This document shows positions 3,289 through 29,061 of a DNA stretch of 40,901 nucleotides, piece by piece. A program made the position numbers and the translations under genes. Location: IMG/VR virus record IMGVR_UViG_2563366888_000019, positions 1-40,901 of that record, one strand, 5' to 3'. Position 1 is the stretch's first letter. The number at the start of each line of letters is the position of its first letter. The DNA comes from a virus. Taxonomy: Duplodnaviria > Heunggongvirae > Uroviricota > Caudoviricetes. Below the pieces are notes generated by a model. That model had not been told where the DNA came from. It ran no database searches and saw only the letters and a program-made list of their open reading frames with translations.

Positions 3289-3585
3289 TCAAATAGAGAA
3301 ATAAACACAAAAACAAAAAACAACAGGAACAGCAAAATCCAACAGACTTCCCACATCCCACACGCGTGGATCAAAACCTCCCCACCACGGCATGTTGATA
3401 CGTTTCCCTTTCCCAAACTTTTCTATCCAGCGATATTCTGCCTGGGTGTGTTCACGCGCAATGAAGAACGTACAACCGGCTATCGCACCGTAAGCCCAGT
3501 TTCCGGTAAAAATACCAACCAGTACCTGAGCCGCAAAAGCGCAAAGCGAGTGAAGAAATGGAGTGACATCAATGCTCTTAATCAT
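3289..3585 (-). CDS. small membrane protein translationally coupled to tailspike (98 aa)
   Basis: ATG overlaps tailspike stop (ATGA); hydrophobic helices. Confidence 0.45.
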   Translation of the reverse strand: MIKSIDVTPFLHSLCAFAAQVLVGIFTGNWAYGAIAGCTFFIAREHTQAEYRWIEKFGKGKRINMPWWGGFDPRVWDVGSLLDFAVPVVFCFCVYFSI

Positions 3586-5771
3586 GAAACTTCCCCATTG
3601 GTTGAAAATATGGCTCCTCCAACGCCAAGTGTATTTCGTGTTGTGCTCAACCTCAGAGGGCTGGAGTCAGAATTAGAATATCCTGTAGCAGAAATAAAAG
3701 ATCCTCCACTAATAGTCAACTGCGGAACATCGGCTATATCTGAATAAGTTCTGTCAGCAACAGTATTATTTATAGCCACATATGATCCAAAAAAACTTCT
3801 TATTGTTTGGTTTTTAACTTTACTTCCTTCAATGGTTATCCTACTACCACAGTCGGCAATAAATCCTGAATCTGCATCCAGCGTTGCATTCATAAAAGAA
3901 GCTTCAGATCTCTCTACATCAATCCATCTAATATCTTTTGTGGGATTTGCACCAAATACATGACAAATATTAGAGTTAAACCTTACACCATCTTGGAGGT
4001 GCATTAATTTTTTTATATCTGTACCCCATAGCCTTGGAAAATTAACAGATGCTCCTGCATGGCAATCAAATCCCAGCTCAGCCCCTGAGATATCTACAGC
4101 CTTTCCTGAAATAACAGCACCAGTGTCTGCATTAACGGCTGTTCCACAATTGCGCATATCATTACCAGCAACATCAACGCAACCCGCACCATCAATACGC
4201 ACACCAAGTGCACATCCATAAAAACCTTTTTCAATATTTGGTTCAAGGACTTTACCACTTGTTTCTGCATCACTTTCTTCAACGTCATGTCGTCTTGCAT
4301 CAACATATGCTGTATGAATGCAGGTTAATCCACGATATGAGCAATGTATAGTTTTATGGTCGCGTATATTAACATTTGAACCATCTCTTACATTCCATCC
4401 TATATAACAATAGATTGCACTTGACCCCTGAAAATCTGCTTTAACATTATAAATACAATTAACTGACGCAACCGTACTCTCTGTGCACCGTTCAAACTTG
4501 CTTACAGGCATTGATGCCTTGACATTATTTACCAGTTGCAGGGAAGAGTATCTGCTATAAGAAAAATCACATACGTAATATCCTTCTGGCATATATGCAG
4601 CAACACTTTCCTCATCAGGAGCACATCCGGTATGATATGCACTAATTTTTGCACCAAAACTACCATGAATTCCAACGTAGAACTTTCGAGCACCTGAATA
4701 CGGATAGAAATTAAGTTCAGCTTTTTGAGTTACAATAAATGCACAAACATCGCTATCATCTCTATTTTCTTCGATCTGAATAGCAAATACAGGACTTTTT
4801 GCTGCATCGCAAATGTAAAATAAATACTTGTATTCGTAATACGTTCTAACGATTTTAGTAAACAAACGAGTGTCAGAGAAAACCACTGAGTCTTCTGATG
4901 TTATTTTAATCCAAGACAAATCAACACCTGAACTGAATTCAATTTGATAGTTGATAATATGCCCGGTCTTAATTCTTATTTCGCAGAAAGCATTACCACC
5001 ATCCCACATAGGTCTCATTGACTGGGCTGCAATGATTGCATCTTTGAGTGTAGGGTAATCACCCCATTCGCCAACAGTAATAACAAAAGTATAATATGAG
5101 TTAAAAACAGCGGCATTTTTGCCTTTGGATATCAACTCCTTAATCATAAAAATATTATCTTCGTAATCACAAGGAGAAATTATATCCCTCATTTTGCTTT
5201 GAAATGTTCGTTGTCTTGCCCCGCTTCCTGACGGTATAAACCAACCAAAACCACCAACAACCCCGGCGATTGCAGCATCGACATAATTACGCATTGAGCG
5301 ATTATTTACAGCGTCCTGCTCAAATGATGGATCTGCAAGGTTAGAAATTTTGTTTTGCTTTGCATCGTAATATTTTGCAAGCAAAGATGGTTTCATCAAT
5401 GCACGTCTGAACCACCCAAAACATCGCTGGATCAGCATCGTCAGGTAGTCAAATGCATCTTCATGAACTTCGGGGAAAAATTTTCCCTGATTGCGAAGAT
5501 CAGTCTCCTGCACCACATCAAGCACACGCTCTATCGTAATTCGCCAGCCAGCAGCAAGCGGCGACGGGAGAACCACTTCACCGCCACTATAAGTGCCCGC
5601 TCCAGTTACCTTATAACCGGTATCCAGAACCAATTCTGTTACGTTCCCGTTCAGGTCAGACACCTGAACAACCAGGTCTGATTTTTTGAAAATACGGAAG
5701 GTATACGGAAACGATGTCGTAACGCCGTTACCGGTGTATTCGTTGTGGTCAACTTCGGTTGAGACCGTCAT
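3582..5771 (-). CDS. tailspike / tail fibre with T7-type N-terminal adaptor and beta-helix-like C-terminal domain (729 aa)
   Basis: N-terminal ~120 aa resemble the conserved podovirus tail-fibre adaptor domain; C-terminal part AT-rich, Gly/Asn/Ser/Cys-rich. Confidence 0.8.
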   Translation of the reverse strand: MTVSTEVDHNEYTGNGVTTSFPYTFRIFKKSDLVVQVSDLNGNVTELVLDTGYKVTGAGTYSGGEVVLPSPLAAGWRITIERVLDVVQETDLRNQGKFFPEVHEDAFDYLTMLIQRCFGWFRRALMKPSLLAKYYDAKQNKISNLADPSFEQDAVNNRSMRNYVDAAIAGVVGGFGWFIPSGSGARQRTFQSKMRDIISPCDYEDNIFMIKELISKGKNAAVFNSYYTFVITVGEWGDYPTLKDAIIAAQSMRPMWDGGNAFCEIRIKTGHIINYQIEFSSGVDLSWIKITSEDSVVFSDTRLFTKIVRTYYEYKYLFYICDAAKSPVFAIQIEENRDDSDVCAFIVTQKAELNFYPYSGARKFYVGIHGSFGAKISAYHTGCAPDEESVAAYMPEGYYVCDFSYSRYSSLQLVNNVKASMPVSKFERCTESTVASVNCIYNVKADFQGSSAIYCYIGWNVRDGSNVNIRDHKTIHCSYRGLTCIHTAYVDARRHDVEESDAETSGKVLEPNIEKGFYGCALGVRIDGAGCVDVAGNDMRNCGTAVNADTGAVISGKAVDISGAELGFDCHAGASVNFPRLWGTDIKKLMHLQDGVRFNSNICHVFGANPTKDIRWIDVERSEASFMNATLDADSGFIADCGSRITIEGSKVKNQTIRSFFGSYVAINNTVADRTYSDIADVPQLTISGGSFISATGYSNSDSSPLRLSTTRNTLGVGGAIFSTNGEVS

Positions 5772-7454: not shown

Positions 7455-7540
7455 ATCGGGCACTGGCAAAATCCAGTGCCGGGATTGGCGTTCCGGATTA
7501 CTAAAAGGCGCATTCACCGCGCAAGCGGTTTTTTTATGCG
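7455..7540 (+). ncRNA. candidate structured RNA / leader element with terminator
   Basis: 10-bp-stem hairpin CGGGCACTGG-N6-CCAGTGCCGG followed by ACCGC-GCAA-GCGGT plus T7 terminator; no credible ORF. Confidence 0.3.
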
Positions 7541-7692
7541 TATAGCACGGCCACATTCGTATTATGGTGGGCTGTGTGGGGGCACCGAAAGGTGCGCCGG
7601 GTCCTTTTAGCCGGTTACGCCAACCCTGCACAGTTCACCACCAACCGATTGGCGTCGGTAGTGGTGATTAACCAGACTAAAAGGTAACCACT

Positions 7693-10221: not shown

Positions 10222-13200
10222 CTATTTCATCTGCTCTTCAACTTTATTTAGTAACGGTGATATCGCCCACAGGTTCTGAAAAGGTAGCATTTTACGGACC
10301 GCGTGGGTTTGCTGGCTGTCAAATTCTCCGTTAAGTACACCATTCGCAACCGTCGCGGCATCACCGCCAAGATCAAAGGTAGGACCAAGTAAAGCACCAA
10401 TAGCATTACGACTCTGAAACCTTGATACCGGAGGCGCACCAAACATCGCGCCAAGACCAAACCTACCGCCGCTTATGTTCTCAACGGTATTCAGCGGCTC
10501 AGAGAGCCAGCCAAGCATTCCGCCCCGGTCGATCCCCTCTTTCACAAGGTTATTCCAGCTGTAGTCGATATCGCGACCGCTTAACTTCTGTTTCATCATA
10601 TAGACCATTGAGCCAAGCGCAATCGTGCCAAGCGCACCAAGATAGAATGCAGCATCGCCCTGCTGGATACCAGATACTAGCACCCTGTTATGCTGTGCGA
10701 AGATAAACGTTTTGAACTGCGTGATCATCTTCCAGCCTTCTTTACTAAAAAACAGCGGTGTATCACCTACGCCAGGCGTTACAATCACTGAGTCTACATC
10801 TTTCAGCACTGCAGACTGGAAAATCTCTCTAGCGAAACGGTCATCCCACAGATGACTATGCCCGGTTAACAGCCCGTCCATATCCTCTCCGTGCTTCCCG
10901 AATTGCTCCCCGATTCGGCGCAGAACATCTTCATTGATGCCGACCTGTGCCATCTTCCGCATTTCACTTTTGGAGAGCGTGCCACCAGCAGAAACTTGGC
11001 GAGCCGCGTCAAGTATCCTCGACTGCACTATCATCCCGGACCATGATTTAAGTGCGCTGTTCCACTGATTCATCAGCGTCCAGTTACCGAATTTCTGCGT
11101 CATCCAGTTCAGACCTCGCTCAGCGGCGCTTCTCCGGCTATAGGGGTCAGTAAGATCCGCTATAGCCTTTGTACGCGTAGACAGGACATAATCAAGCCCA
11201 ACGGCCATTTCTCGCAAATCCCTGGTTGCAATTTTCACTGAGTCCATATTTTTAAGCATGCTTACCATTGGTCCGAGAGATTTTCTCAGGCCATGCTGCA
11301 TCATCGGTCGCATCAGATCAGTTGCAGCGGAGACAGTCATTCCACCAAGCAAACGGAGGAAGTTAATATTCCTAGCAACTCGCCCGGCACGAACAAAGAA
11401 ACTGCGTGGATCTTGAGGTGCACCGTAAGTACCAAGCAGTCGATCACGCATAGCCGTAATATCCCTAATATCAGCCTCCCGTTGCTTCTCAAGAACTGCA
11501 CGTCGTTTAGGTGTTTTAGCCTCTTTTATTAGCCGGGTATATTCCTCACTAACCTGACGGATTTGCTCCCCCATATCTTTACGGCCAAACTGCGCAGTCA
11601 GCTCAATTTCTGGTGCCACCTGCCGGAGATAACTTTCCATGATGTAGTTAACATCTGATTCAAGAAAATCTTCTATACGCTCATCAGGAATAAGCAGCGT
11701 TCTGCTTTTAGTGAAACCAGCCCGACCAACGAGTCTCTCTGGGATAATATCGGCTGGTACAAGCCCGGAAGGTGCGCCTATTATTTTATTCACGATCTCG
11801 TCAGCAGCGTCCTCTGCTTCCTCTCGGGATAGAGGCTCCATCTGCTTCAGTGCTCGTTCGCGGCTTGCATTCAGCCTTGTGGTTGAATTTGCCCGTTTTT
11901 GCAGTCGGCGAAGCTCAGAACGATATTTCCGTGGATTATCCAGCAACTCCATATGGCGCTGATAGACAGGAAGCTCACTCTTTGCCTGCGCTATATCATC
12001 AAGGCGTGTTTTAAGGTCAGAGCTTTCTTTCATCATTCTTGCCTGAAGTTTTTCTGATGAAGTCTCGGCCAACTCTTTTTCTATTCTTGTAAGACGCGCC
12101 TGTGTGTCAGTCTCCTGAGATATAAGCTTATTTCGTTTATCCAGTTCTTCCATGAGTAGAATTTTTTTACCAGACCATTTCTCCGCTTCAGCGATTTCAC
12201 TAGCGAGAGCATCAGCGCGCGGTGCCGATTCCTCTGCAGTTTTTAGCAATGAATTTATCCTTTCAATTCGCTGACCTGCTTTGTCAGCACCTTTGGCACT
12301 AATCCCTTGTATCCAGTTGGCAATTCGCCCTCTGAATTCAGTGCGGTCGGAAAGTATCTTATCGAACTTATAAATGCGGGGAAGATAACTTTTCGCCGTC
12401 ACGACATCGATATCCTCAGGAAGGATCCCCAGTTCCTGCATACGGGCTTTTGTGGTCTCGAAAATGGGGCGGATTCTGGCGGCTGCTTGTGAAACCTCAG
12501 GAATATCACTCTGATCACCACGGCGCATAGCCATGCCAACAGCTTCATTGAAATCAATAAAGTTCATCCTCTTCACGCCGCGGGCGCTAACAGATTTGCT
12601 GTACTGCTGGTAAGCATCACGAGTGGCTTCCATCTGCTTATAAAGCATGGCGTCGTATTGCTTAATCTTAGTCTCGACTGCCGTAAACGTAGCCAACCCC
12701 TCATCATTTTTGGCGAAGAAATAGTTATTTTCGGCAAGCTGCTGGTTAATCTGACGGGAGACAAGAGATGGTGATTGAGCCAAGCGGCCAGCAGGAGTGA
12801 CACTCAACGTTTTGTTAGCAAGTCCAAGTCCAGCGAGCTGTTCCTGATCGAGTGTGGTATTGAAAACCTGAGCTGCACCAATGCTTTGAGGAGAATCCAT
12901 ACCTCGCAAATGATTACCTACTGAGTTAACCACTGCCTCGCGCGCGCTAGGTCCAGCAAGTAGCTGTGCACCAGCACCAAGGATCCCACCAACGAGAGCA
13001 TCAACAACAACGTTCGATACGCTCTCCATCGGTGAGCGAGCTTCCTGAGTGGCCTGTAATGCGGCTTCTGATACTCCCCCACCAGCAGCATTCGCCAGGG
13101 CAAAACGCCCTGCCGTCTCAGCAATACTTCCTCCACGCGCTACCGCCCCTACAGGGATAAACATTGCAGCCACATTAACCGGGTCTATCATTCCCATTGC

Positions 13201-13611
13201 TAAGCTTGAAATAGTACCAGCACCACCCATTTCAGATAGATATTCTCTATCTGTTCTTTGCTTATCGATTCGATGTTTAATTGCCATTGTTTCTTCATGC
13301 GAACCGGAGTTGATAAACGAATCTGCAAAATCTTCATAGCCTTTAATATCTGCTGCATCGTTATCAAATGGGTTATATCCTTCAACCCTGTCAAACTGAC
13401 TGAAAGGAGCACTGGCAATAAAGCTACCCAGCGTGTTATCTATACGAAATGCTGCTTGTCTAGACCTTTGAACGCGTTGATCACTGGTAAATGGGTTCAC
13501 AGCAGAAAGCAAAGAAGGTGTTTCCATATAGAAATTACTGTCATCAGGTGCTGCTATTTGCTGAATATCCTCGCCAAGCAACTCTTTAGGATCCTGTTCA
13601 TATATCGGCAT
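10222..13611 (-). CDS. large internal virion / ejection protein, gp16-like by position (1129 aa)
   Basis: size and position downstream of gp15-like gene; ATG overlaps upstream stop; coiled-coil-rich. Confidence 0.55.
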   Translation of the reverse strand: MPIYEQDPKELLGEDIQQIAAPDDSNFYMETPSLLSAVNPFTSDQRVQRSRQAAFRIDNTLGSFIASAPFSQFDRVEGYNPFDNDAADIKGYEDFADSFINSGSHEETMAIKHRIDKQRTDREYLSEMGGAGTISSLAMGMIDPVNVAAMFIPVGAVARGGSIAETAGRFALANAAGGGVSEAALQATQEARSPMESVSNVVVDALVGGILGAGAQLLAGPSAREAVVNSVGNHLRGMDSPQSIGAAQVFNTTLDQEQLAGLGLANKTLSVTPAGRLAQSPSLVSRQINQQLAENNYFFAKNDEGLATFTAVETKIKQYDAMLYKQMEATRDAYQQYSKSVSARGVKRMNFIDFNEAVGMAMRRGDQSDIPEVSQAAARIRPIFETTKARMQELGILPEDIDVVTAKSYLPRIYKFDKILSDRTEFRGRIANWIQGISAKGADKAGQRIERINSLLKTAEESAPRADALASEIAEAEKWSGKKILLMEELDKRNKLISQETDTQARLTRIEKELAETSSEKLQARMMKESSDLKTRLDDIAQAKSELPVYQRHMELLDNPRKYRSELRRLQKRANSTTRLNASRERALKQMEPLSREEAEDAADEIVNKIIGAPSGLVPADIIPERLVGRAGFTKSRTLLIPDERIEDFLESDVNYIMESYLRQVAPEIELTAQFGRKDMGEQIRQVSEEYTRLIKEAKTPKRRAVLEKQREADIRDITAMRDRLLGTYGAPQDPRSFFVRAGRVARNINFLRLLGGMTVSAATDLMRPMMQHGLRKSLGPMVSMLKNMDSVKIATRDLREMAVGLDYVLSTRTKAIADLTDPYSRRSAAERGLNWMTQKFGNWTLMNQWNSALKSWSGMIVQSRILDAARQVSAGGTLSKSEMRKMAQVGINEDVLRRIGEQFGKHGEDMDGLLTGHSHLWDDRFAREIFQSAVLKDVDSVIVTPGVGDTPLFFSKEGWKMITQFKTFIFAQHNRVLVSGIQQGDAAFYLGALGTIALGSMVYMMKQKLSGRDIDYSWNNLVKEGIDRGGMLGWLSEPLNTVENISGGRFGLGAMFGAPPVSRFQSRNAIGALLGPTFDLGGDAATVANGVLNGEFDSQQTHAVRKMLPFQNLWAISPLLNKVEEQMK

Positions 13612-16358
13612 TATTTGCCCCCTGCGTATATATTGCTCGGAAGGTAATTGGCTGAACCATAACCGAATGGTTTGGTCAGATCTGGAGGAGTATATCCATC
13701 TTTATTGCTGAACTGCGGCAGCGGATTGCCTTCTCTCCGCACTCTAGCCTCATCAACACGCTGTTGCTGGAACTGAATGGTTTGCCTGTACATTGGAGAT
13801 GTCAGCTGATCCGGCTTGAAACGAACAGGGAGACCATTTTCTCCAATATAATTTCTCGGTTCTATCGCTCCGTTTGCGTCAGGCTGTAAAACCATAACAG
13901 CATAACTCCTATCCCTTGCCGTAAGGCCATCAGAAACAAGTATTAAGTCCGTATCACTGCGAGGACCGCCAAAGGATTTTGATTTAAGCTCGCGTTTTTC
14001 CTGCTCCCACTGCCCCTGTATCCAGTTACCAGCACCATTATTTACTCCGTACAATGCCTCAGGTGCATACTTCATAACCTCTGCTTTGCCATTAACCGTA
14101 GAAACTCCCCAGGTGGTTCTGATCATGGCATTGGTCATTTTCTCAGCCTGTTCTGCATCGCCACCTGTCTGTACAAAGTTAGCATCGTAAATTGTCTGGT
14201 AATCTCGCTGATAGGCCGCATTTGATTTTCCTGGATCGGTAATATCCGGAGACCACGAACCAAAGGAAGTCAGACTGCTGGCGTTATTTTGTGCAGCAGT
14301 TGCCCTCGCCGCGACATATTTTTTGTCTCGCATGGCAGTGGAAAGCATCTGTTTCATTCGGTCATCCTGTTGGAACACCTGGCTGTAAGCCATATCAACA
14401 GCCTTATCCTCCGGCACGCCAGCGCGGGAATAATCGTAAACCTTGCCGTAAAATGCCATCGTACTTTTATCAAGTGTTGCCGCTGCCGCCGGATTATTAT
14501 CGAATAACTGACCGTAGAATTTTGCCATCGGGACAACCAGCGCAGGATCTCTTGATGTTGCTCCACTGTTAAGCATTGTTTTAACCTGAGTTGGTATCAT
14601 GCCGCTTTTAGTTGTGACGGTGACCAGTGTATTGATGCTCTGCGGATCAGATATGGAAAACGAAGGCGCGATATCCTGCGCGAAATAACGGTCTACCGCT
14701 GCCTGATTGTTTTTGTCGTTCGGGTCCAGCGGGAAGTTATTTTGCATTGAAGACACGAACCTGTTTCTTCCCTGCTGAATCTCCCACTCCCTATCCATCT
14801 CTTTAAATTTGGCCTGCATTTTCTCCCAGCGTTGCTGGTTAGCTGCAAATCCAGGAGCATTTGGATCCTGTGGACGTAAACGTTCAAGAATGTCTTGTCG
14901 TCCTTCTGGAGTGAGGTCTTTAGCGGCACCAATGACACCTCCATATTGTATCTGCGCCTGCATATCCTTCCACTTCATAGCGCCAATGCGCGGACCATTG
15001 GCCCGGATAAAATCGTCCTCAGAAGGTAACTTCTCAGGTTTCAATCCTTCATCAAGGGCTGAATATGCATCTTTAACTACGGTGCTAAGCTGGTCCGCAT
15101 ACTGCTGGCGGTACTGATTTCTCAGCTCATTAGCCTGCCTCAATGCCTGTATTTGCATTTGAGGGCTCATAGCATCAAATGCCGCATTGCCCGTATAACG
15201 CTTAGGTGAATCAAGGTTAGTTAGACCAAGGGCTGCCGAGATACCAGTTTCAAGCTGTTCGGTGCTATAAGGCATACTGCCATTTTCGTGTTTAATAATC
15301 CCAGCACATAAAGCAGCTAGTGTCTTTGGGCTAGAGATATCAAGCTGATCATTCTCCCCAACACCAAGCTCACCACACAATGCCCTAATATAAGCATCAG
15401 TATTATTACCATCACTAGCCGGAGCATAGCGATTAACAATCTCGCTAACGGTGTCATAGCCTTGACGCTGGTAAGACAACATATTTTTACCCAACGCGCG
15501 GATTCCATGCTCAGGGGTAGCAAACGTTGCAAAACGTCCATCGCTACCGATCTGACCTTCCCACGGGTTAGATTTGCTCGCTTCAATATTACCAGGGTTA
15601 TTATTACGTAAACCACGAGCATCCAATGAATTACCATGTGATATTGCACGACTCACACCATCAAGATCCCCTGGCTCTCCATTAACCTGAAGAAACTCGT
15701 TGTATTTTTGAGCGATATTTCCTATCCATGCTTGCTGCCCCATTTGTTCCTTGAGCTGAGTTTTCTGCTGAACACGCCACTCATCAGGAAGCCCATGCGC
15801 ATCAGCGTATTGATCAATAGATTCAAATCGCTGCTTGGCTAAATCGACAAATGCTTGGTTATCGCTATATAGCCCCGCAGACTGAGTGACAGCCAATGCA
15901 TTTCCTGACAAATACGTTTGATCTTGGAATTGCTGAAACTGCCCAACTTCATATCGACGTGCCTGATTGTAATAAGACTGCATAGACTGCTGGAGTTGAA
16001 AGGATAATTTATTCCTTTCCTCACTTTCAGGAATTGAGCCTAATAATGCCTGAGCCCTTTCCTGCATATTTTTCATAACAGCGTCACTCTGACCAAGAGC
16101 GTTTTTACCCTGTTTAGAAATCAGCCCACTTTCAGGGTTGTTAATCTGGTCATCTGCAAATTGGTTAAATTGCAGTAACGCCTCCTGGGACATAGCAACA
16201 TTCGCTTTCTGCCTGGCTTCACCATATGCCACCGCATACTGATCTGCGACATTCGCCAGCACCTGACCTGCTTGAGGAACATCGAAGATCTGAAAACCAC
16301 CGGTTTGCACACCACGACTTTGCACCTGACGTCCGGATACTGTTGGTACGACTGGCAT
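13611..16358 (-). CDS. internal virion / ejection protein, gp15-like by position (915 aa)
   Basis: ATG at 16358 overlaps upstream stop (TAATG) with GGAGG SD; track start at 16433 is an upstream extension. Confidence 0.55.
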   Translation of the reverse strand: MPVVPTVSGRQVQSRGVQTGGFQIFDVPQAGQVLANVADQYAVAYGEARQKANVAMSQEALLQFNQFADDQINNPESGLISKQGKNALGQSDAVMKNMQERAQALLGSIPESEERNKLSFQLQQSMQSYYNQARRYEVGQFQQFQDQTYLSGNALAVTQSAGLYSDNQAFVDLAKQRFESIDQYADAHGLPDEWRVQQKTQLKEQMGQQAWIGNIAQKYNEFLQVNGEPGDLDGVSRAISHGNSLDARGLRNNNPGNIEASKSNPWEGQIGSDGRFATFATPEHGIRALGKNMLSYQRQGYDTVSEIVNRYAPASDGNNTDAYIRALCGELGVGENDQLDISSPKTLAALCAGIIKHENGSMPYSTEQLETGISAALGLTNLDSPKRYTGNAAFDAMSPQMQIQALRQANELRNQYRQQYADQLSTVVKDAYSALDEGLKPEKLPSEDDFIRANGPRIGAMKWKDMQAQIQYGGVIGAAKDLTPEGRQDILERLRPQDPNAPGFAANQQRWEKMQAKFKEMDREWEIQQGRNRFVSSMQNNFPLDPNDKNNQAAVDRYFAQDIAPSFSISDPQSINTLVTVTTKSGMIPTQVKTMLNSGATSRDPALVVPMAKFYGQLFDNNPAAAATLDKSTMAFYGKVYDYSRAGVPEDKAVDMAYSQVFQQDDRMKQMLSTAMRDKKYVAARATAAQNNASSLTSFGSWSPDITDPGKSNAAYQRDYQTIYDANFVQTGGDAEQAEKMTNAMIRTTWGVSTVNGKAEVMKYAPEALYGVNNGAGNWIQGQWEQEKRELKSKSFGGPRSDTDLILVSDGLTARDRSYAVMVLQPDANGAIEPRNYIGENGLPVRFKPDQLTSPMYRQTIQFQQQRVDEARVRREGNPLPQFSNKDGYTPPDLTKPFGYGSANYLPSNIYAGGK

Positions 16359-16903
16359 TATAATCCTCCGGGTAATCTGGTTCCTGCTGCTGCCCCGATT
16401 GGCGCAGGAGTGCTTTGAGTAAACGGACTCCACGTCCCACCAAACATCTGGTACGCACCGTATGCCTTCAGAGGCGCAGTGAGCAATGTTGTTGCTGCTC
16501 CCACATTCCCCTGTTTACGGGCTGAACTGGCTTCTGCTTTATAGTTGGCAGCCTGAACCTGATAACCGTAAGCCTCGCGTTGCGCGTTATTCACCGTCGT
16601 CAGCGAATCAAGAGCGCCAAACTGGGCAGTGTCGCCAAATATATCCAGCGCGTTACCTGTAGATAAATCAGCGCCGGTAGCCCCCATTGTCGCCGCCTGT
16701 GTACCAAGCCGCTGTCGGGTCTCTCTGCGTCGTTGCTCAGCTTCAGCGTTACCTCTGTTTATTGCATCATTTGCCTGAGCTGTGGCTATATCTGCGTTCG
16801 CTTCTGCAACCTTCGAGGCATACTTTCCCTGTTGGTACTGGGTGTATGCCTGAATGCCACTCATGGCGAGCATTGCGCCACCAGCAATAACCGGATCGCA
16901 CAT
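16358..16903 (-). CDS. internal virion protein, gp14-like by position (181 aa)
   Basis: Ala/Gln/Gly-rich; translationally coupled chain. Confidence 0.45.
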   Translation of the reverse strand: MCDPVIAGGAMLAMSGIQAYTQYQQGKYASKVAEANADIATAQANDAINRGNAEAEQRRRETRQRLGTQAATMGATGADLSTGNALDIFGDTAQFGALDSLTTVNNAQREAYGYQVQAANYKAEASSARKQGNVGAATTLLTAPLKAYGAYQMFGGTWSPFTQSTPAPIGAAAGTRLPGGL

Positions 16904-21651: not shown

Positions 21652-22635
21652 TTACACCACGCGGGCTTCTGTTTCCAGAAGCGCATCAGTTTCACGGATT
21701 GGTACACCACGGAATGACGTCCACCACTCGCCTTCAGTCTCTTTTACGCTGATCGCCAGAGATGTTTTCTCCAGAGACTGCAAATCAAGAGCCTGGCCTA
21801 CAGTGCGGTTCATGTAGAACACCGGGCGCCCCATGCCACGGTTCGGAATGCGATGCAGTGCTTTAACCATCAACTTCGCAATATTTGCGGCAGAGGAAGG
21901 TTCTGAAAGATTGCTGACATCGATGTTTGCAATGCGAACAACATAACGCCAGTCACGCAGAGCAAGTCCGTTATCCCATTTGTAATGGGTGCGATAGCCT
22001 TCGTACTTGCCGCCATTAGCATCTTCCAGTGTCACCTGGCCTTTATCTTCCATCTGGATGCCAGCCTTCTGCCCTTTCGGGAAGATGCCATGCACGGTGT
22101 TTTCGCCCCACACCACTAACCAGATTGAGGTGTTATCTGTACCCGTGCCACCAGCATCAATGATGTTCTGAGCATTACCCGCAGACAGGCTGGAATAGCG
22201 GGAGGACAGTCCCATAAACTGCTGAGGGTTAACGCTGGAATCACCATAAAACAGCGTCTGCGCCATCTGCTGATTCATCGCTTCAATAAATGCGCGGTCT
22301 TCAGACAGGCGGAATTCGGCGGTATTGCCGTTCAGATCAGCCAGTGACTTATCGACTTCAGCATAGGTTTCCAGCATGCCAACGGAATCGGTGACCTGCA
22401 CCGTGGTTGATTTGCTTGGCTGTACGCCATAGTTCAGCAAACGCCAGGTAGCAGAAGGTAAACCAGAACGAATGGTGGTTCGGTGTCCGGTAGGAAGGTT
22501 TCCTTCAACAAAAGGCATATCCTGAAGAATTGGGTTAGTTTGATTGAGAAGCTCGATAATCTTATCGACTTTCCCATTTGGATCGACGCGCTTACCCCAG
22601 TCAGCCAGCGTTAGCGCAGTTAAGCCTTTAACCAT
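21652..22635 (-). CDS. major capsid protein (327 aa)
   Basis: position after scaffold, size, strong GGAG SD, hairpin immediately downstream. Confidence 0.7.
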   Translation of the reverse strand: MVKGLTALTLADWGKRVDPNGKVDKIIELLNQTNPILQDMPFVEGNLPTGHRTTIRSGLPSATWRLLNYGVQPSKSTTVQVTDSVGMLETYAEVDKSLADLNGNTAEFRLSEDRAFIEAMNQQMAQTLFYGDSSVNPQQFMGLSSRYSSLSAGNAQNIIDAGGTGTDNTSIWLVVWGENTVHGIFPKGQKAGIQMEDKGQVTLEDANGGKYEGYRTHYKWDNGLALRDWRYVVRIANIDVSNLSEPSSAANIAKLMVKALHRIPNRGMGRPVFYMNRTVGQALDLQSLEKTSLAISVKETEGEWWTSFRGVPIRETDALLETEARVV

Positions 22636-23347: not shown

Positions 23348-23644
23348 TCACTCCTGTTCACTGGCCTCTTTGGCCATCTTCAAATACTGTTCAGGGCAAT
23401 GCGCCATAACGCGCTGAAACAGTTCCAGCGCCAGATTGCGTTGCCCCTCATTAAATGCCATTGCCATAGCGTCCATCGGTGAGATAGCGGAAAACACACG
23501 GCCTTTCTCCAGCACCGACCAGACAACGCGACGCCCCTGTTCACTGCTCATGACAAAGCGAATGTCATCAATTTCACGCTGTGCCATGTCACGTTGCTTA
23601 CGGGCGTTTTCTTCTTTCAGTTGATCATCTTCGTAATCTGTCAT
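23348..23644 (-). CDS. hypothetical head-module protein (98 aa)
   Basis: ATG overlaps portal stop. Confidence 0.45.
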   Translation of the reverse strand: MTDYEDDQLKEENARKQRDMAQREIDDIRFVMSSEQGRRVVWSVLEKGRVFSAISPMDAMAMAFNEGQRNLALELFQRVMAHCPEQYLKMAKEASEQE

Positions 23645-25320
23645 TGTGATTGCCCACCCTGACCACTAACTGCATTCGCCATAGCTGACAAAACACTCGG
23701 ATCCGAAGTTTTAGCTTCGCTTAGCGTCTTGGCACCCTGTGCCGCCGCCATCCCCATCGCCATCATTTGTTGCTGCTGTTGTTGCTGTGCCCGTTGCTGG
23801 CGAGCCTGCTCAACCTGTTCCTGCGGAACAATGACGGTTGGAGACACTCCGGACATATCAGCGAATGCATCGATCGCCTGATCAACGTTGAGTTTGTCGA
23901 GAGCTTCTGGTTTCGCTTGCGCAAGTTGACCAATGAAGTTAACCGTGGACGCCAGACTGGACAGGCCGATAGACTTCTGCGCCTGAGCCATGACGGAAAT
24001 GTATTCGACCTTCAGGGGCATACCTTCCATCGCGTCAGGCGGTGGCGGCAGCATGTTTTTACGCACCATCATCGAGAAAGCGCGGTCAATGAGAGGGTTA
24101 AGACATTCGTCGTTCAGACGCTCCAGAACCGGCCCCAACATCAGAAGTTTTTCTTCTTTCATTTCGATCACCGCTTCAACAGGCATCGAGCGGGTATTGA
24201 TGTTCTGCAACATCATGAACAGATCGACAAAGTAGGCGCTGTTAATGATTTGACGAGTGTCCTGAATGTCTGCTACCAGATCTGCTGTACTGGGGTTAAC
24301 CAGATAAGCAGGCCTGAAACCATCCTGACCAGTAATCTGATCGATATACGTGATGTCGCCAGGAAGAAGGGAGGCGCGCTGATTCTTGAGGGAATTCGGA
24401 GCAACCATCGGCGGATTGGTGGCTTTATCAATCAACTGCGACTTGCGCTTCTGGAGAAGCTGCAATGCCTTAACAGGTCCAAGCGCCAGCATACCCGGGC
24501 ATGATGATCCATAAACATCTTCGCCATTAACTTCCCAGCGCGGAGCCATAATTGGAAACTCATCAAATCCGGACTCACGCAACAACTTGTCGTTATCGCC
24601 ACCAACCTCGTAATAAACCGATTTGAATGGCTTGTTCTTGCTATCCAGCTTCGATGTATCGCGGTCAATGTTCGGGTAAACCGAATGCATCACGTCAATC
24701 CACTTCTCGTAGGTGCCGCTTTCCCACATGCTTTTTACGGATTCGCTGACGTTATTTAGCCCGAACTCCTGAACAAGCTGACGAACAGTCATAGAGAACT
24801 TGCGAAAACAGGTGTCCACACTGCCACGAGGTGAGTTAGCCAGGTAGTAACTGCCTATCGGGAATGGCATTGTGCGAATGATGTCCTCGTCATCCTCCAG
24901 CACCGCCATTGCACCAGTGCTGTATGTGCCGAGGCTTCCGTATAACTGCGGAAGAGACTGGTAGAGATTCGACTTATTGAACATATCGTTCATGCGGTTC
25001 TGCACCGCCTCAAGCCACAACTTAACAGGGCCATAATCCATCATTTCAGGATCTGGCGTAGCCAGGCGAAACCACGGACGCGCTGGGCTTGTGATGCCTG
25101 ACATCATGCCGCTGGCGAGAGTGCGCGCCGCCATAGTCCCGGTCGAATCAATAATGCGTGTATTGCGTCGATCGTTACGGTTGACCTCAGAAGTCAGAAA
25201 GCGGGAACCACGCGGGTTGATGTAATCACTCAACTCGCGCCAGTGCGGCTCGAACGACTGACGCTCGCTTTCAAGTTGTGCGAACTGTTTGTTCAATCGC
25301 TCTTTAGTTGTTTCCGCCAT
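23641..25320 (-). CDS. portal protein (559 aa)
   Basis: size and position as first large head gene after terminase; GGAG SD; acidic Gln-rich C-terminus. Confidence 0.75.
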   Translation of the reverse strand: MAETTKERLNKQFAQLESERQSFEPHWRELSDYINPRGSRFLTSEVNRNDRRNTRIIDSTGTMAARTLASGMMSGITSPARPWFRLATPDPEMMDYGPVKLWLEAVQNRMNDMFNKSNLYQSLPQLYGSLGTYSTGAMAVLEDDEDIIRTMPFPIGSYYLANSPRGSVDTCFRKFSMTVRQLVQEFGLNNVSESVKSMWESGTYEKWIDVMHSVYPNIDRDTSKLDSKNKPFKSVYYEVGGDNDKLLRESGFDEFPIMAPRWEVNGEDVYGSSCPGMLALGPVKALQLLQKRKSQLIDKATNPPMVAPNSLKNQRASLLPGDITYIDQITGQDGFRPAYLVNPSTADLVADIQDTRQIINSAYFVDLFMMLQNINTRSMPVEAVIEMKEEKLLMLGPVLERLNDECLNPLIDRAFSMMVRKNMLPPPPDAMEGMPLKVEYISVMAQAQKSIGLSSLASTVNFIGQLAQAKPEALDKLNVDQAIDAFADMSGVSPTVIVPQEQVEQARQQRAQQQQQQQMMAMGMAAAQGAKTLSEAKTSDPSVLSAMANAVSGQGGQSQ

Positions 25321-25334
25321 TTCAATGACTCCGG

Positions 25335-25541
25335 TTACTGACCAAGCAGCGTTTTACCGCTGGTATTAGCGGTTGATGTGTCACCCTGAGAACCGGTAAG
25401 CAGCGTAGAACTACGACCAGCAGCAGCGCGACGGCGACGAGTTTCTTCGTCGCGGGCATCAACAACGGCGGCATCCTGCTCCTGTGGTGCTGCCTGAACT
25501 TCTGGTGTTGCAGGCACTGATGGTGAGCTACCCATGCACAT
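25335..25541 (-). CDS. small acidic low-complexity protein (68 aa)
   Basis: initiation region CGGAGTCATTGA-ATG almost identical to that of the portal gene. Confidence 0.35.
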   Translation of the reverse strand: MCMGSSPSVPATPEVQAAPQEQDAAVVDARDEETRRRRAAAGRSSTLLTGSQGDTSTANTSGKTLLGQ

Positions 25542-25609: not shown

Positions 25610-25638
25610 TTGACATTTAACGCACAAATTATTACCTT
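25610..25638 (+). promoter_or_regulatory. candidate promoter (-35 TTGACA) facing the tRNA
   Basis: TTGACA at 25610-25615; poor -10 (TACCTT) overlapping palindrome site 4. Confidence 0.3.
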
Positions 25639-25647
25639 TCAGGTAAC
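25631..25647. promoter_or_regulatory. operator-like palindrome ATTACCTTTCAGGTAAC (site 4)
   Basis: same core as site 1; between head operon start and tRNA. Confidence 0.55.
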
Positions 25648-25968
25648 CAAAGAGTTCATTCCGGTTACTAACCTGACTGGCTTGTCGTTAAATTGAACAG
25701 GTGGAGTGAGCTTTTATTTTGAGCAGTACGGCGTATGGCACATGCGCCGATAGCGGTCTGGATACGTTTAAGGGGCACCCTCCCTTGCTCGGGCAAACGA
25801 ACCAGGTAGCCGGAATGTGCAAGTCGAGCGGTTTTATTCCGCGCACGGGGATTCACCATCCCGGCGATTCGGTGTGACGCCTCGGAAGAGACGAGGGTAC
25901 AACGATGAGAGCATTTATGGAGCCGCGACAAAGTGTGGCGCCTTAACAGGCTAAGTGCTCTCAGCGTT

Positions 25969-26045
25969 GTGGCATTAGCTCAGTTGGACAGAGCAACCGC
26001 CTTCTAAGCGGTTGGTCGCAGGTTCGAATCCTGCATGCCACGCCA
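25969..26045 (+). tRNA. tRNA-Arg (anticodon UCU)
   Basis: 77 nt; acceptor stem GTGGCAT/ATGCCAC, T-loop GGTTCGAATCC, anticodon loop CTTCTAA, discriminator G and encoded CCA; close to host argU-type tRNA as recalled. Confidence 0.85.
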
Positions 26046-26088
26046 GAATCACGCCTAAGGACCGTGATGCCAGAAGTTCCAGGGGCTT

Positions 26089-26131
26089 GGCGGTGATGGT
26101 TTCCCTTGAAGGACTATCACCGCCCTTTTTA
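26089..26131 (+). terminator. rho-independent terminator after tRNA
   Basis: GGCGGTGAT...ATCACCGCC stem then CTTTTTA. Confidence 0.55.
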
Positions 26132-26208
26132 CAGCAGGACGCCATTGCGATGACTTCATGCTGTAAACCAGTACAGCCACGGAAGGCATAACTCATTGCT
26201 TCCAGTTC

Positions 26209-26232
26209 GCCCGGTTCGCCGGGCATTTTTTT
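26209..26232 (+). terminator. second rho-independent terminator
   Basis: GCCCGG-TTCG-CCGGGC then ATTTTTTT. Confidence 0.65.
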
Positions 26233-26243
26233 AAGGTGAGATT

Positions 26244-26615
26244 ATGAACGACCAGTAAATCGAAAAAGAAATCGCAGCCAAGGGTAAGACGGCGGCTCGC
26301 GTTACTCCTGAACACATTGCCAGCATAATCGCCAGCGAACATTACTTTACGGCCGCTGATGGTGCTCGCTTTGCTCATGTGCAGAGAAGCGAAACATACA
26401 GCGTAAAAATCCCAGACCAGCCTGACGAGCTGGAGCTGCTGACATTCTGCGTACTGGTGCTGAAGAATGGCTTCACTGTCACCGGAGAGAGTGCCTGTGC
26501 AAGTCCGGAAAATTTTGATGCAGAAATTGGTCGGAAGATTGCCCGGCAGAATGCTGTAAACAAAATCTGGATGCTTGAAGGTTACTTGCTGAAGCAGAAG
26601 TTAAGCGAGCAATAA
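26244..26615 (+). pseudogene. 123-codon ORF interrupted by in-frame TAA at codon 5 (alternatively a 78-aa CDS from GTG 26379)
   Basis: AAGGTGAG SD then ATG AAC GAC CAG TAA; same frame stays open and protein-like for 119 codons. Confidence 0.4.
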
Positions 26616-26635: not shown

Positions 26636-26663
26636 AGCCAGCCGATGAGCTGGCTTTGTTTTA
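26636..26663 (+). terminator. rho-independent terminator
   Basis: AGCCAGC-CGATGA-GCTGGCT then TTGTTTT. Confidence 0.6.
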
Positions 26664-26705: not shown

Positions 26706-28181
26706 TTAAGCATACGGGTCATAATCTGTGATGGCCTTGCCTTGCTGGTTCTGCTGCCAGGGAAGTCGCAGGCGCTTCGACACCGGGAAAGCAAACGTCA
26801 GCAGCAGCGCATCGCCTTTACCCGGCGAACGCCCAAGTCGCTCTTTGATATCTTCCTTCGGTTCGATAACGATTTTACCGTCCACTCGAACTTTGTACTC
26901 TGCCGCCGACAGGTCGTCTGCAGTTTCCTGGTCATCCAGCATGCCGCCCAGCCTCAGCCATGTCTTACATGAGTTGAACATCTCCCCACGCTTGTTGAGC
27001 ATCTGCGGGTCAGTAGACGCGCCACCGAACGGAACAAGTTGCCATGTACGACCCCAGCCGTCACCGATTGACTTCAGACCAGTTCCGTAACCGAAGTCGA
27101 TGAACACTGCGTCAGCCTGGTACTGGTCTTCAAAGTCAGCGATACGCTTCGCCATAATCAGATCGTCAGTGGTCTTGTTGCCAGTCCACAGCACCTTACT
27201 GTGCAGCCCCTGCCGCAGGTATATCACAGCGTCATCAACGCCTGAGTATGCCGGGTCAACGCCGATTATCACCGGAGCATGTGCAACCTGCGCAGCGGTG
27301 ACCACCCGTTTCATTGCCTCGTCAGTAAGTCCGGTAGGGATAAACTGCAATTCAGATGCATCCGGGAATATGCCGCGCACACGGATTTTAACGAAGTCGC
27401 TGTCTTCCCCGTAGTCATCAACCCATTTCTGCAACTGCTGTTTGTTGGTGCCTTCCACCGTCCGGCTGTCAATCTGCGCAGTTTTCCAGCGGTGTTTATA
27501 TTTGCGGAAACATTCGCGGAAACGTCCGGTATTACGCGTCGGGTTTCCGAACGCCACCCAGATAATCTCAGTGTCTTCGTCCGTTAGCGCACCCTCGGCA
27601 ACTTCCCACACCAGATCCGCAATGTTCGACGCTTCATCGAATACCACGATGATGCGTTTGCGCTCGTTGTGTAGTCCGGCGAATGCCTCAGTGTTGTGCT
27701 CAGACCAGGGTATTGCGTCAGCTCGCCACCGCTTGTCGTGTCCAGGATCATTGCTGTACATCGCGGTAGCGGTACAGGTAAACCAGTCTTTCGTGATAGC
27801 AAGGTTCGACCACTTGATAATTTCCGGCCAGGTCTTCGTTCGTAGCTGGTTGTCGGTGTTGGCGGTCACCACAACCTTACAATCCTCGCAAGTGGACATG
27901 CCCCAGTTGATCAGCATTGAGATGAATGCGGATTTACCAATACCGTGACCCGAAGCGCGTGCCAGCATAAGCGGCTGATAGCGCGTCTCTGGATTCTGCA
28001 GGTGATCACGTATCTCTCGGAACGCATCAGCCTGCCACTGACGTGGACCGGTGGCATGTGCCAGTTCAGTCCCATCTTCCCCCCACGGGAACGCATAGAG
28101 GGCATAGCCAAGCGGATCGTGAGTGAACCCTGCAATATCCTCGATTAACTGCTCTTCAGGAGATAACGCTGTATCTGTCAC
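26706..28181 (-). CDS. terminase large subunit (491 aa)
   Basis: Walker A-like SGHGIGKS; GTG start overlapping TerS stop; position before portal. Confidence 0.8.
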   Translation of the reverse strand: MTDTALSPEEQLIEDIAGFTHDPLGYALYAFPWGEDGTELAHATGPRQWQADAFREIRDHLQNPETRYQPLMLARASGHGIGKSAFISMLINWGMSTCEDCKVVVTANTDNQLRTKTWPEIIKWSNLAITKDWFTCTATAMYSNDPGHDKRWRADAIPWSEHNTEAFAGLHNERKRIIVVFDEASNIADLVWEVAEGALTDEDTEIIWVAFGNPTRNTGRFRECFRKYKHRWKTAQIDSRTVEGTNKQQLQKWVDDYGEDSDFVKIRVRGIFPDASELQFIPTGLTDEAMKRVVTAAQVAHAPVIIGVDPAYSGVDDAVIYLRQGLHSKVLWTGNKTTDDLIMAKRIADFEDQYQADAVFIDFGYGTGLKSIGDGWGRTWQLVPFGGASTDPQMLNKRGEMFNSCKTWLRLGGMLDDQETADDLSAAEYKVRVDGKIVIEPKEDIKERLGRSPGKGDALLLTFAFPVSKRLRLPWQQNQQGKAITDYDPYA

Positions 28182-28774
28182 TGATTACCATCCTGACGTT
28201 CTTTGAGTCGCTTCCTGGCTGCTGCTATGCGATCAGCAATTGTCACATTCACATTAACATCCAGACGTTCTTTGAATGCGTTGACATCAACATGCTTACC
28301 AATCAGCTCAAGGTTCTTCACCTTGTCAGGCCATTTAATTTTTTTGAGGATTGTCTCTATCGAATCCTCGTTCATGTTCATGATGGTCGATGACAGATCA
28401 AAGCCGCTAAGCGTAGTGCGCCAGATTTTCGGCCACTCGCGGATTGGCTTAAGGCTCCCATCGTCGTTGAGGATGTCGATCACGTCCATCTGGTCGATCT
28501 CCACCAGGCGCATGAGAACGTAATCAGCACTGACGCGCATTCGTTTGTTGCGCTCCTCCATCAACTCGGCAATCCGTTTCTGAATGCGTTCATCGCGCAT
28601 CATGACACTGGCTTTAACTGCCGCTGTATTTGGGGAGAATCCTGCGTTAATCGCAGCCTGAGTCTGATTTTCAGGCGTTTTGATGTATGACTGGCAATAA
28701 GCCTCCTGCATTGCTGTTAGTGGCTTAAATTGCGTTGATTTGCGTTTATAGGTTTTAGGTTCAGCAGGCATCAT
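28178..28774 (-). CDS. terminase small subunit (198 aa)
   Basis: HTH segment LTAMQEAYCQSYI...TQAAINAGFS typical of small terminases; ATG-ATG at 28774 after GGTGG SD; track start 28852 is a TTG extension through a terminator. Confidence 0.7.
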   Translation of the reverse strand: MMPAEPKTYKRKSTQFKPLTAMQEAYCQSYIKTPENQTQAAINAGFSPNTAAVKASVMMRDERIQKRIAELMEERNKRMRVSADYVLMRLVEIDQMDVIDILNDDGSLKPIREWPKIWRTTLSGFDLSSTIMNMNEDSIETILKKIKWPDKVKNLELIGKHVDVNAFKERLDVNVNVTIADRIAAARKRLKERQDGNQ

Positions 28775-28789
28775 AACCACCGTGGTAAT
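28773..28789. promoter_or_regulatory. operator-like palindrome ATAACCACCGTGGTAAT (site 5a)
   Basis: overlaps TerS start codon and SD. Confidence 0.45.
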
Positions 28790-28790
28790 A

Positions 28791-28807
28791 GTTACCGTTG
28801 TGGTAAT
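28791..28807. promoter_or_regulatory. operator-like palindrome GTTACCGTTGTGGTAAT (site 5b)
   Basis: adjacent to 5a; near-identical to site 13 in reverse. Confidence 0.5.
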
Positions 28808-28816
28808 AGTACCATG

Positions 28817-28843
28817 CAAAATAAAGCCGCCATAGTTGGCGGC
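28817..28843 (-). terminator. rho-independent terminator upstream of terminase genes
   Basis: GCCGCC-AACTAT-GGCGGC then TTTATTTTG on minus strand. Confidence 0.65.
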
Positions 28844-28848
28844 AGTAT

Positions 28849-29061
28849 TCAAAGTCCATCAAATTCATCGTAAAAACTCTCGTCAAGATACCCTTTCCAT
28901 TTACCGCGAATGAAAATTACATCCTCGCCGCAAGGGTGCTGACTGTCGATAACTATATCCCTCCTGGCGCAACCATACTTATGCATGAGAAATTTAACCT
29001 CTTTCGGAAAATTAGCTGAGTTATCTCTCATATCTTCAAGGTCGTAGCGTATTTTTGGCAT
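28849..29061 (-). CDS. hypothetical protein (70 aa)
   Basis: GAAGGTG SD before ATG 29061. Confidence 0.4.
   Translation of the reverse strand: MPKIRYDLEDMRDNSANFPKEVKFLMHKYGCARRDIVIDSQHPCGEDVIFIRGKWKGYLDESFYDEFDGL

Follow-up and report, generated by a model that had tools for sequence, protein, structure and literature searches.

A phage tRNA-Arg(UCU) gene as an interchangeable domain of a widespread structured leader RNA heading an anti-defence cassette

We analysed a stretch of virus DNA of 40,901 nucleotides (IMG/VR record IMGVR_UViG_2563366888_000019; the whole stretch is called the window below), which is an epsilon15/phiV10-like temperate podophage of the genus Uetakevirus, and in it a cassette that carries a tRNA-Arg(UCU) gene between the portal and terminase genes. 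The phage tRNA itself is already known, its site is normal for the genus, and taken alone it is routine. The new point is that this tRNA is an interchangeable domain of a widespread, unannotated structured leader RNA, which heads an anti-defence cassette. An earlier reading of the sequence, the first-pass annotation, had described the tRNA together with a promoter-like element and two terminators.

The structured leader RNA and its tRNA domain

The structural genes of the window lie on the minus strand. Antiparallel to these late genes, the plus strand carries, in this order, a promoter-like element, a stretch of about 360 nucleotides, the tRNA gene, terminators t1 and t2, a gene of Pfam family PF13876 and a terminator t3, the last two being additions to the first-pass annotation. 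The features of the cassette are the following.

25610-25638, plus strand: promoter-like element read from the sequence, with a -35 TTGACA (25610-25615), a 17-nucleotide spacer and a -10-like TACCTT (25633-25638)
25631-25647: repressor operator palindrome ATTACCTTTCAGGTAAC, covering the -10 and the expected transcription start
25655-25726, plus strand: upstream leader segment, with the look of a degenerate P6-type hairpin (GTCGTTAAAT ... GGAGTGAGCT) in alignments
25727-25904, plus strand: conserved structured core RNA (covariance model R1, 142 bits, E = 1.8e-42; sole match in the window)
25729-25749, plus strand: helix P1 of the core
25757-25761 with 25802-25806, plus strand: helix P2 of the core
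25806-25823, plus strand: ultra-conserved 18-mer GTAGCCGGAATGTGCAAG
25828-25842, plus strand: variable P3 of the core
25848-25862, plus strand: helix P4, with loop TTCACCA
25854-25857 (CACC of the P4 loop) with 25871-25874 (GGTG), plus strand: candidate pseudoknot
25880-25896, plus strand: helix P5, with loop GAAGAGA
25901-25968, plus strand: long helix P6, AACGATGAGAGCATT (25901-25915) with AAGTGCTCTCAGCGTT (25953-25968), enclosing a variable insert
25969-26045, plus strand: tRNA-Arg, anticodon UCU, argU-like, with encoded CCA (ARAGORN, Rfam RF00005)
26048-26068, plus strand: P8 hairpin ATCACGCCTAAGGACCGTGAT, kept in relatives on the 3' side of the tRNA or P7 domain
26089-26131, plus strand: terminator t1, a 14-bp stem GGCGGTGATGG.../...CTATCACCGCC followed by CTTTTTAC (hairpin 26089-26124, -22.8 kcal/mol, z = -5.8)
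26209-26232, plus strand: terminator t2, GCCCGGTTCGCCGGGC followed by seven T (hairpin 26209-26224, -12.7 kcal/mol)
26244-26615, plus strand: cargo gene of family PF13876 (N4 Gp49 / Sf6 gp66; Pfam E = 1e-36 on the part after an in-frame stop)
26636-26655: terminator t3, between the convergent cargo gene (plus) and the terminase gene TerL (minus), -12.1 kcal/mol

The 360 nucleotides from promoter to tRNA are no plain spacer: 25727-25968 is a structured RNA with five covarying helices. On the 32 representative loci used to define P1, P2, P4, P5 and the pseudoknot, 95.5% of the alignment cells concerned are paired (slid controls, 30-51%), with changes on both sides at 13 of 26 pairs. Model R1, built from this alignment, retrieved 101 copies in 100 sources, with 76 distinct sequences; in the alignment of these 76, itself fitted to R1, 95.0% of cells are paired and 11 of 22 pairs show double changes. 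For P6, compared in 17 sequences, the figures are 92.3% paired versus 33-62% in slid controls, with double changes at 5 of 16 pairs. The last base of P6 (25968) directly abuts position +1 of the tRNA. The element also contains long invariant single-stranded stretches, and the 18-mer is exact in 21 of the 22 R1-confirmed loci that were retrieved with a different seed.

We place low confidence in the upstream segment 25655-25726 because its fold is no better than that of shuffled sequences (z = -1.2); the counterpart of this hairpin in epsilon15 is annotated as an 'RNaseIII' site. P8 alone is a weak hairpin (-5.9 kcal/mol, z = -1.8).

In Rfam 15, segment 25610-25968 matches no family at E <= 10 save for chance-level matches on the opposite strand, and the elements of six relatives, searched at E <= 0.5, give nothing beyond a sub-threshold RprA match at the 3' module of one lambdoid locus (L043). 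Among the RefSeq matches listed, 0 of 40 carry an annotation of the element, and a full-text literature search for the 18-mer found no relevant paper. Judged by Rfam 15, RefSeq annotation and the searchable literature, the leader RNA family is thus undescribed. Absence from Rfam is no proof of novelty, since the put antiterminator RNAs of phages HK022 and HK639 are also absent from it.

Two other accounts of conserved stretches in the leader were tried and rejected. A small open reading frame (ORF) beginning at the ATG of 'ATGAGAGCATT' would have only 13 codons in the window; many copies have CAGGTAAGAGC, CACGAGAGC or similar at this place, the frames differ among copies, and the stretch is a strand of the covarying P6. 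We also discarded a T-box-like pairing, of UGGN type, between the P1 loop (UGGC) and the 3' GCCA of the tRNA, the loop being invariant with any adjacent tRNA or none. ORFs for hypothetical proteins have been drawn antisense to, or inside, the tRNA or the leader RNA in phiV10 (p04, locus L003, 3676-3927), mEp460 (037, L004, 2443-2811) and Ayreon (0037, L163, 4061-4180), all three probably spurious.

The tRNA is well supported. ARAGORN finds a single tRNA in the whole 40.9 kb, tRNA-Arg(TCT) of 77 nucleotides at 25969-26045 on the plus strand, and Rfam model RF00005 scores it at 73.3 bits against a gathering score of 29; two independent models thus return the cloverleaf and confirm the complete 77-nucleotide tRNA with anticodon UCU that had been claimed. 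Its strand, opposite the late genes, and its place between terminase and portal are likewise borne out by the coordinates. With argU of E. coli K-12, also 77 nucleotides long, the tRNA shares 64 of 77 positions, among them the whole anticodon loop, D-arm and T-arm, G73 and CCA; compensatory exchanges affect three acceptor-stem pairs and two anticodon-stem pairs, and position 20a and the variable loop also differ. Arginyl-tRNA synthetase recognises A20 and C35 as identity elements, and both A20 (in a GGAC D-loop) and C35, with discriminator G73, are present in the phage tRNA as in argU.

The position, which the first-pass annotation called atypical for a phage tRNA, turns out to be the standard one in the genus. 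A tRNA-Arg is annotated at the same site in O157 typing phages 9 and 10, SPN9TCW, SPC32H, phiv142-3 and Klebsiella ST512-KPC3phi13.3; these sister Uetakeviruses have the same tRNA gene on the same strand, between portal/gp3 and accessory gene/TerL, and nothing essential differs. In the phiV10 record the antisense ORF PhiV10p04 is drawn over the tRNA instead, and in epsilon15, Tyrion and PAT1 the cassette is present and the tRNA absent. The possibility that the tRNA is a remnant of an integration site was rejected: it is of full length, and the attachment site of this phage group lies elsewhere, beside the integrase gene, and targets guaA (PMC9782041).

How does the tRNA relate to the leader? 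At 129 loci compared, tRNA-Arg(TCT) directly follows the element in 34, a tRNA with a CAT anticodon (annotated as tRNA-Ile in phage P7) directly precedes it in the 20 P1/P7-like loci, and the rest have no adjacent tRNA. Comparison of the 3' parts gives a common plan of core, P6, a variable P7 domain of 70-150 nucleotides closed by GTTGTGG...CCACAAC, the P8 hairpin ATCACGCCTWAGGACCGTGAT and t1. The latter, the conserved 3' end of the RNA module, has the homologous form GGCGGT...ACCGCC CTTTTTACA in lambdoid and other loci. The tRNA of the window (GTGGCAT...ATGCCAC GCCA) replaces the P7 domain precisely, the GTGG and CCAC ends being common to both. Because most copies have a variable, stem-closed domain at the tRNA slot, these alignments show the tRNA, at the level of sequence, as a domain swapped into a long non-coding leader.

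We rejected the idea that the P7 domain is a decayed tRNA-Arg, its local alignment to the tRNA interior being no better than that of shuffled sequences (z <= 1.8). The variable P6 and P7 inserts often hold T-arm-like hairpins, for example GGTTCGATTCC and GGTTCAATTCC (L010, L011, L015, L078, L099, L101 and L105), and the insert of L105 has a tRNA-like stretch that ARAGORN does not call. Such inserts may be T-loop modules or tRNA fragments.

Distribution and genomic contexts

The leader is 97-99% identical within the E. coli Uetakeviruses, and the element is 70-75% identical in Uetakeviruses of Salmonella, Enterobacter and Klebsiella. Segment 25728-25968 is also about 82% identical to unannotated DNA of the lambdoid phages mEp460, cdtI, Ayreon and 2H10 and of many Shiga toxin (Stx) 2c and some Stx2a phages, and phage P7 shows about 80% identity over the first 165 nucleotides of the element. 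The exact 18-mer, used as a seed, led to at least 120 IMG/VR loci in 40 clusters at 90% identity. By BLAST, the element occurs in 1840 of 5426 complete E. coli genomes, 1473 of them with at least 80% coverage, at 1920 chromosomal and 554 plasmid places.

A scan of one genome per species with a different seed (P1 and the next junction) yielded 22 R1-confirmed loci, in Kosakonia, Phytobacter, Citrobacter, Klebsiella, Kluyvera, Enterobacter, Superficieibacter, Pseudescherichia, Escherichia and Candidatus Erwinia dacicola, plus one short contig of a metagenome-assembled genome labelled Bacillota. The latter (L156, JAIIAN010000430.1, 1753 bp) bears a full-scoring copy (162.8 bits) and is probably a mis-binned enterobacterial phage contig or contamination. 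Six other seed matches outside the Enterobacterales (Pirellulaceae, Clostridia, Bacteroidota, Acidovorax and others) were dismissed, R1 finding no match in them; about nine chance matches are expected for the pattern used, and those outside the Enterobacterales stay at the chance number.

Some copies depart from the plan. In epsilon15 the element is truncated (37.5 bits; L002, 3546-3651), P1 and the start of P2 being joined to t1. Locus L028 has two full core copies on the same (minus) strand, at 3992-4154 and 4799-4959, some 650 nucleotides apart, with an AT-rich insert between them that apparently lies within the P6 loop of the first copy; L123 also has two. In Tyrion (L007, 2708-2772), an Rfam int-alpA RNA (44 bits against a gathering score of 35.8) lies in the same cassette, flanked by the accessory gene and a DUF551 gene.

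The lambdoid loci, which have different repressors (mEp460, cdtI, Ayreon, Stx2a_1447, L015, L026, L038, L043 and L078), share one order: cro on the opposite strand, a cI-type repressor gene (helix-turn-helix and Peptidase_S24 domains where tested), its terminator, a promoter with operator-like repeats, the element, one or more terminators and the early-left genes. These genes, co-directional with the element and 3' of it, extend to xis in cdtI. A promoter with 10 of 12 consensus positions ends 6 nucleotides before the first model position in L038, and in L017 and L047 the element begins, by eye, about 10 nucleotides after a -10 TATCTT. Pfam tests of early-left proteins gave no N-like family, and the annotations of the early-left regions of mEp460 and cdtI include no N gene. 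In phage P7 the element is part of the C1-controlled ban operon, with the tRNA-Ile gene on one side and ban on the other. Uetakevirus and lambdoid contexts alike have a strong terminator after the element.

Typing phage 9, epsilon15 and Tyrion all preserve the TTGACA of the window and the interval between it and the operator, with a diverged spacer. The palindrome TTACCTTTCAGGTAA at 25632-25646 is one of 14 TTACC-N5-GGTAA sites in the window, where 0.53 would be expected by chance, and its counterpart in epsilon15 bears a repressor protein_bind annotation, with an IHF site next to it. A promoter-like TTGACA element facing the tRNA and overlapping a palindrome, as the first-pass annotation had it, is indeed present; the overlap involves the -10-like TACCTT, not the -35. 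The sites start at 5876, 7284, 7409, 8460, 25632, 28774, 28792, 32225, 32287, 34233, 34570, 34618, 35330 and 35392; several are paired, and their genome-wide scatter recalls the dispersed C1 operators of P1.

The two terminators that had been placed 3' of the tRNA are both found there on the plus strand. Terminator t2 is kept in epsilon15, Tyrion and Klebsiella relatives and ends 12 nucleotides before the start codon of the cargo gene; the t3 hairpin is annotated in phiV10 as a terminator on the opposite strand. The consensus promoter scanner finds no sigma-70-like promoter between t1 and this start codon. Given the lack of such a promoter and the position of t2, expression of the cargo gene seems to require read-through of two terminators.

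The cargo protein matches PF13876 at 125.7 bits (gathering score 27) over profile positions 1-82 of 82, and weakly matches the PDB structure 9e4w of Acb4 (E = 0.011). PF13876 is the family of Acb4, founded by Acb4 of phage SPO1, a nucleotide sponge directed against the cyclic-oligonucleotide-based antiphage signalling system (CBASS) (Chang et al., PMC11722364). Codon 5 of the gene in the window is an in-frame TAA (26256-26258), where five close IMG/VR relatives have CAA, typing phage 9 has GAC and epsilon15 has GAT. The stop stems from a C-to-T nonsense mutation or else from a sequencing error. Starting at the next in-frame start, GTG at 26379, would lose 45 residues. A Klebsiella relative has a Tad2-like gene (PF11195) in the same slot. 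The first-pass annotation had suggested a self-contained cargo unit under operator control, which is partly borne out: it does have its own promoter-like element, operator overlap and terminators, and it holds more than a promoter, tRNA and terminators, the tRNA being a module of a long non-coding RNA and the cassette running on into an Acb4-family gene.

The surroundings are those of close relatives. Over the 1.4 kb around the tRNA, identity is 92.7% with Escherichia phage phiV10 and with O157 typing phages 9 and 10; for parts of this region it is 98% with vB_EcoP_ZX5 and TL-2011b, likewise of the genus Uetakevirus. The neighbouring late genes are the following.

28178-28852, minus strand: terminase small subunit (TerS; Pfam Terminase_2)
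26706-28181, minus strand: terminase large subunit (TerL), a 491-aa ORF named from the annotation at the same position in epsilon15 and phiV10; no Pfam match
25335-25541, minus strand: gp3-like gene of 68 aa, named from annotation in relatives
23641-25320, minus strand: portal (Pfam Head-tail_con, E = 2.7e-187)
21652-22635, minus strand: capsid

Elsewhere in the window, Rfam models for isrK (72.3 bits) and C4 antisense RNA (77.7 bits) match side by side at 7460-7645. This pair is the P1/P7-type immI antirepressor control module, and the same pair adjoins the Rha antirepressor gene of mEp460 (L004, 206-394).

Possible functions of the leader and the tRNA

We favour, with moderate confidence, a reading of the locus as an early accessory cassette, in which a repressor-controlled leader with its tRNA combines a put-like but unrelated cis-acting antiterminator with a tRNA that decodes AGA and AGG. 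The -10 and the start site of its promoter lie inside one of the 14 operators, so the cassette would be off in a lysogen and on at induction or infection; control by this operator is suggested by its position only. The transcript would begin with about 600 nucleotides of non-coding modules (core, P6, tRNA, P8, t1, a conserved spacer and t2), followed by the Acb4-family gene and t3. A cut by RNase P at tRNA +1 would free the tRNA and a core-P6 RNA of about 245 nucleotides with a defined 3' end. The core, judged by its position, might act in cis on its own RNA polymerase as put of HK022 does, although it is unrelated in sequence and about three times larger, and the polymerase could thereby pass t1 and t2 and reach the cargo gene. 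In lambdoid phages that lack N, the core would carry transcription into the early-left operon. Only tentatively do we go further and propose that 25727-25968 exemplifies a new class of protein-free RNA antiterminators, pseudoknotted modular leaders of about 180-250 nucleotides, unrelated to put, that would take E. coli RNA polymerase past terminators, substitute for N and nut in a large group of temperate phages of enterobacteria and be able to accept a whole tRNA, RNase P both maturing the tRNA and setting the end of the RNA.

For the tRNA, the reading predicts additional decoding of AGA and AGG. The first-pass annotation had expected these codons to be enriched in phage genes, and over 55 crude ORFs of the window they are: AGA stands at 7.0 and AGG at 6.9 per 1000 codons, together 13.9 per 1000 and 22.5% of arginine codons, compared with about 3 per 1000 and about 6% in codon tables of the E. 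coli host. The frequency is thus about four times that of E. coli. The enrichment is located in large tail proteins and in accessory genes, not in the neighbouring head and packaging genes; large proteins rich in the two codons are those of 10222-13611 (24 of 86 arginine codons), 13611-16433 (20 of 53) and 3582-5771 (18 of 36).

A number of observations weigh against this combined reading. As to decoding, the capsid, portal, TerL and TerS genes have 0-1 AGA or AGG codons each. As to control, the TTGACA/TACCTT pair is not called by the consensus promoter scanner, the weak -10 agreeing with consensus at just three of six positions, and in phage P7 some 2.4 kb separate the element from the annotated operator. 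Antitermination is read from position and architecture alone; in P7 there is no terminator between the element and ban to be overcome, neither the HK022 nor the HK639 genome gives a significant R1 match, and a BLAST comparison with put returns 7-8-mers only. The pseudoknot is tentative because its covariation comes down to a single pair in four related sequences. Since epsilon15 has the cassette with only a truncated element, the element is dispensable there. Finally, the TAA at codon 5 means that the cargo gene of the window is broken or that the base is a sequencing error.

Further evidence on this side leads to the main rival, to which we give a lower but real probability: the conserved RNA would be a stable trans-acting non-coding RNA, most transcripts would end at t1, and the tRNA would merely ride along in an early RNA gene that is strongly transcribed. 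RNase P or processing of the P7 domain would free the core and P6, and the 3' part would be a small RNA (sRNA) of the Hfq type. Directly ahead of t1, many relatives have a segment identical to nucleotides 59-82 of E. coli RprA (TTGCTGTGTGTAGTCTTTGCCC), over up to 24 nucleotides; the Rfam RprA model scores 49.7 bits, below threshold, at the 3' module of L043, and the terminator of L078 is also RprA-like. RprA being an Hfq-dependent sRNA, this segment fits a terminated trans-acting sRNA at least as well as an antiterminator, but the copy in the window is without it. The element's own promoter and strong conserved terminator point the same way; so do the long invariant single-stranded stretches, which suggest a binding surface, and the end of P6 at tRNA +1, which would define a 3' end. 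However, the element heads a co-directional operon in every annotated context, which a free-standing sRNA gene would not require, and the lambdoid early-left genes lie behind t1 with no other antitermination device visible. The RprA-identical segment was noted about 200-760 nucleotides after the 18-mer in L121, L057, L078, L065, L122, L111 and L123, and in L043 at 7558-7677.

An alternative that concerns the tRNA, and which we regard as improbable, is that it is an anti-defence device, replenishing or replacing host tRNA-Arg(UCU) cut by a nuclease of the host or of a competitor. It is established that colicin D cuts tRNA-Arg and that anticodon nucleases can be countered by phage tRNAs. The same cassette holds Acb4-family or Tad2-like genes, it would seem to be expressed early from a repressor-controlled promoter, and the acceptor and anticodon stems are remodelled relative to argU. 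The anticodon loop, however, is that of argU, so that a nuclease recognising the loop would cut the phage tRNA too; no defence system specific for tRNA-Arg(UCU) was identified in this analysis, and the AGA/AGG enrichment is a simpler reason for the tRNA. Very unlikely is an ordinary tRNA moron whose 360-nucleotide precursor leader has no function of its own and is conserved by close kinship: the 97-99% leader identity within E. coli Uetakeviruses is indeed expected from recent common descent, but the RNA is tRNA-less at most loci, occurs in lambdoid, P1/P7-like and Uetakevirus phages of more than 10 enterobacterial genera, and shows compensatory changes in five helices and an 18-nucleotide invariant block.

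What would an antiterminator leader mean? About one in three complete E. coli genomes carries the RNA, and Stx-converting phages, P1-like plasmids and O157-typing phages are among its bearers. In phages with neither N nor put it occupies the position that nutL has in lambda and putL has in HK022, and it may therefore explain how the early operons of such N-less and put-less phages are driven; if so, it would be a second, structurally different RNA-only way to reprogram RNA polymerase. A tRNA exchanged as one structural domain within a larger RNA is another feature of the locus. The slot behind it, presumably expressed early, swaps anti-CBASS and anti-Thoeris genes and should be useful for finding new anti-defence genes.

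Comparison with known systems

One parallel, in position and context, is put. The put sites of HK022 and HK639 likewise form the 5' end of a repressor-controlled early transcript in N-less phages, with terminators after them. PutL lies just downstream of PL, requires no protein factor and binds the zinc-binding domain of the beta' subunit (PMC9378689); in the HK639 annotation a putL-like RNA follows the putative pL. HK022 putL and the HK639 putL-like RNA are about 70-126 nucleotides long and 79% identical to each other over 63 nucleotides. Put has about 70 nucleotides and two stem-loops, whereas the element has a core of about 180 nucleotides, about 245 with P6, at least five helices, a likely pseudoknot and swappable domains. 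The short strings that the element shares with put, kept as no more than a lead, are CGGCG...CATGCGTCG, and GGAAGAG with HK639 only. We therefore rejected a homology of the leader RNA with put: the likeness is one of position and context, not of family.

In lambda, nutL lies directly after PL, as the element does after its promoter. The 3' strand of P6 reads TGCTCTTT or TGCTCTCA, followed by GTTGTGG, and so resembles boxA (TGCTCTTT) and the GU-rich boxC consensus. Of the other parts of a lambda-type nut system, no boxB hairpin was found, and no N-like Pfam family in the early-left operon. A boxA/Nus site in P6 is not supported and is a weak lead at most, the string being paired in a covarying helix, which argues against binding of NusB/NusE to a single strand.

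Among other structured RNAs, GOLLD and ROOL, which Weinberg et al. are said to have described in 2009 and 2017, are reportedly prophage-carried non-coding RNAs of unknown function that often stand beside tRNA genes. The element is smaller, restricted to Enterobacterales and promoter-proximal, and it has no Rfam match to either. An RNA abutted by a tRNA or tRNA-like helix, with an end made by RNase P, is known from the C4 RNA precursor of P1/P7 and from the eukaryotic MALAT1-mascRNA; here the corresponding arrangement is P6 ending at tRNA +1, where processing would be a purely conjectural counterpart.

The cargo gene belongs by family match with the viral nucleotide sponges Acb4 and Tad2, its copy in the window being interrupted at codon 5. 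As a whole, the cassette resembles morons, with which it shares its own promoter and terminators, an orientation antiparallel to the late genes, insertion into the packaging/head module and a content that varies among relatives: in the window, a promoter-like element (a predicted promoter) and terminators enclose a variable content between conserved late genes, the tRNA being present in some relatives and absent from others, and the protein gene being of PF13876, Tad2-like or of another kind. It differs from them in being a composite of a non-coding RNA, a tRNA and an anti-defence gene, and in being apparently controlled by the repressor rather than expressed in the lysogen.

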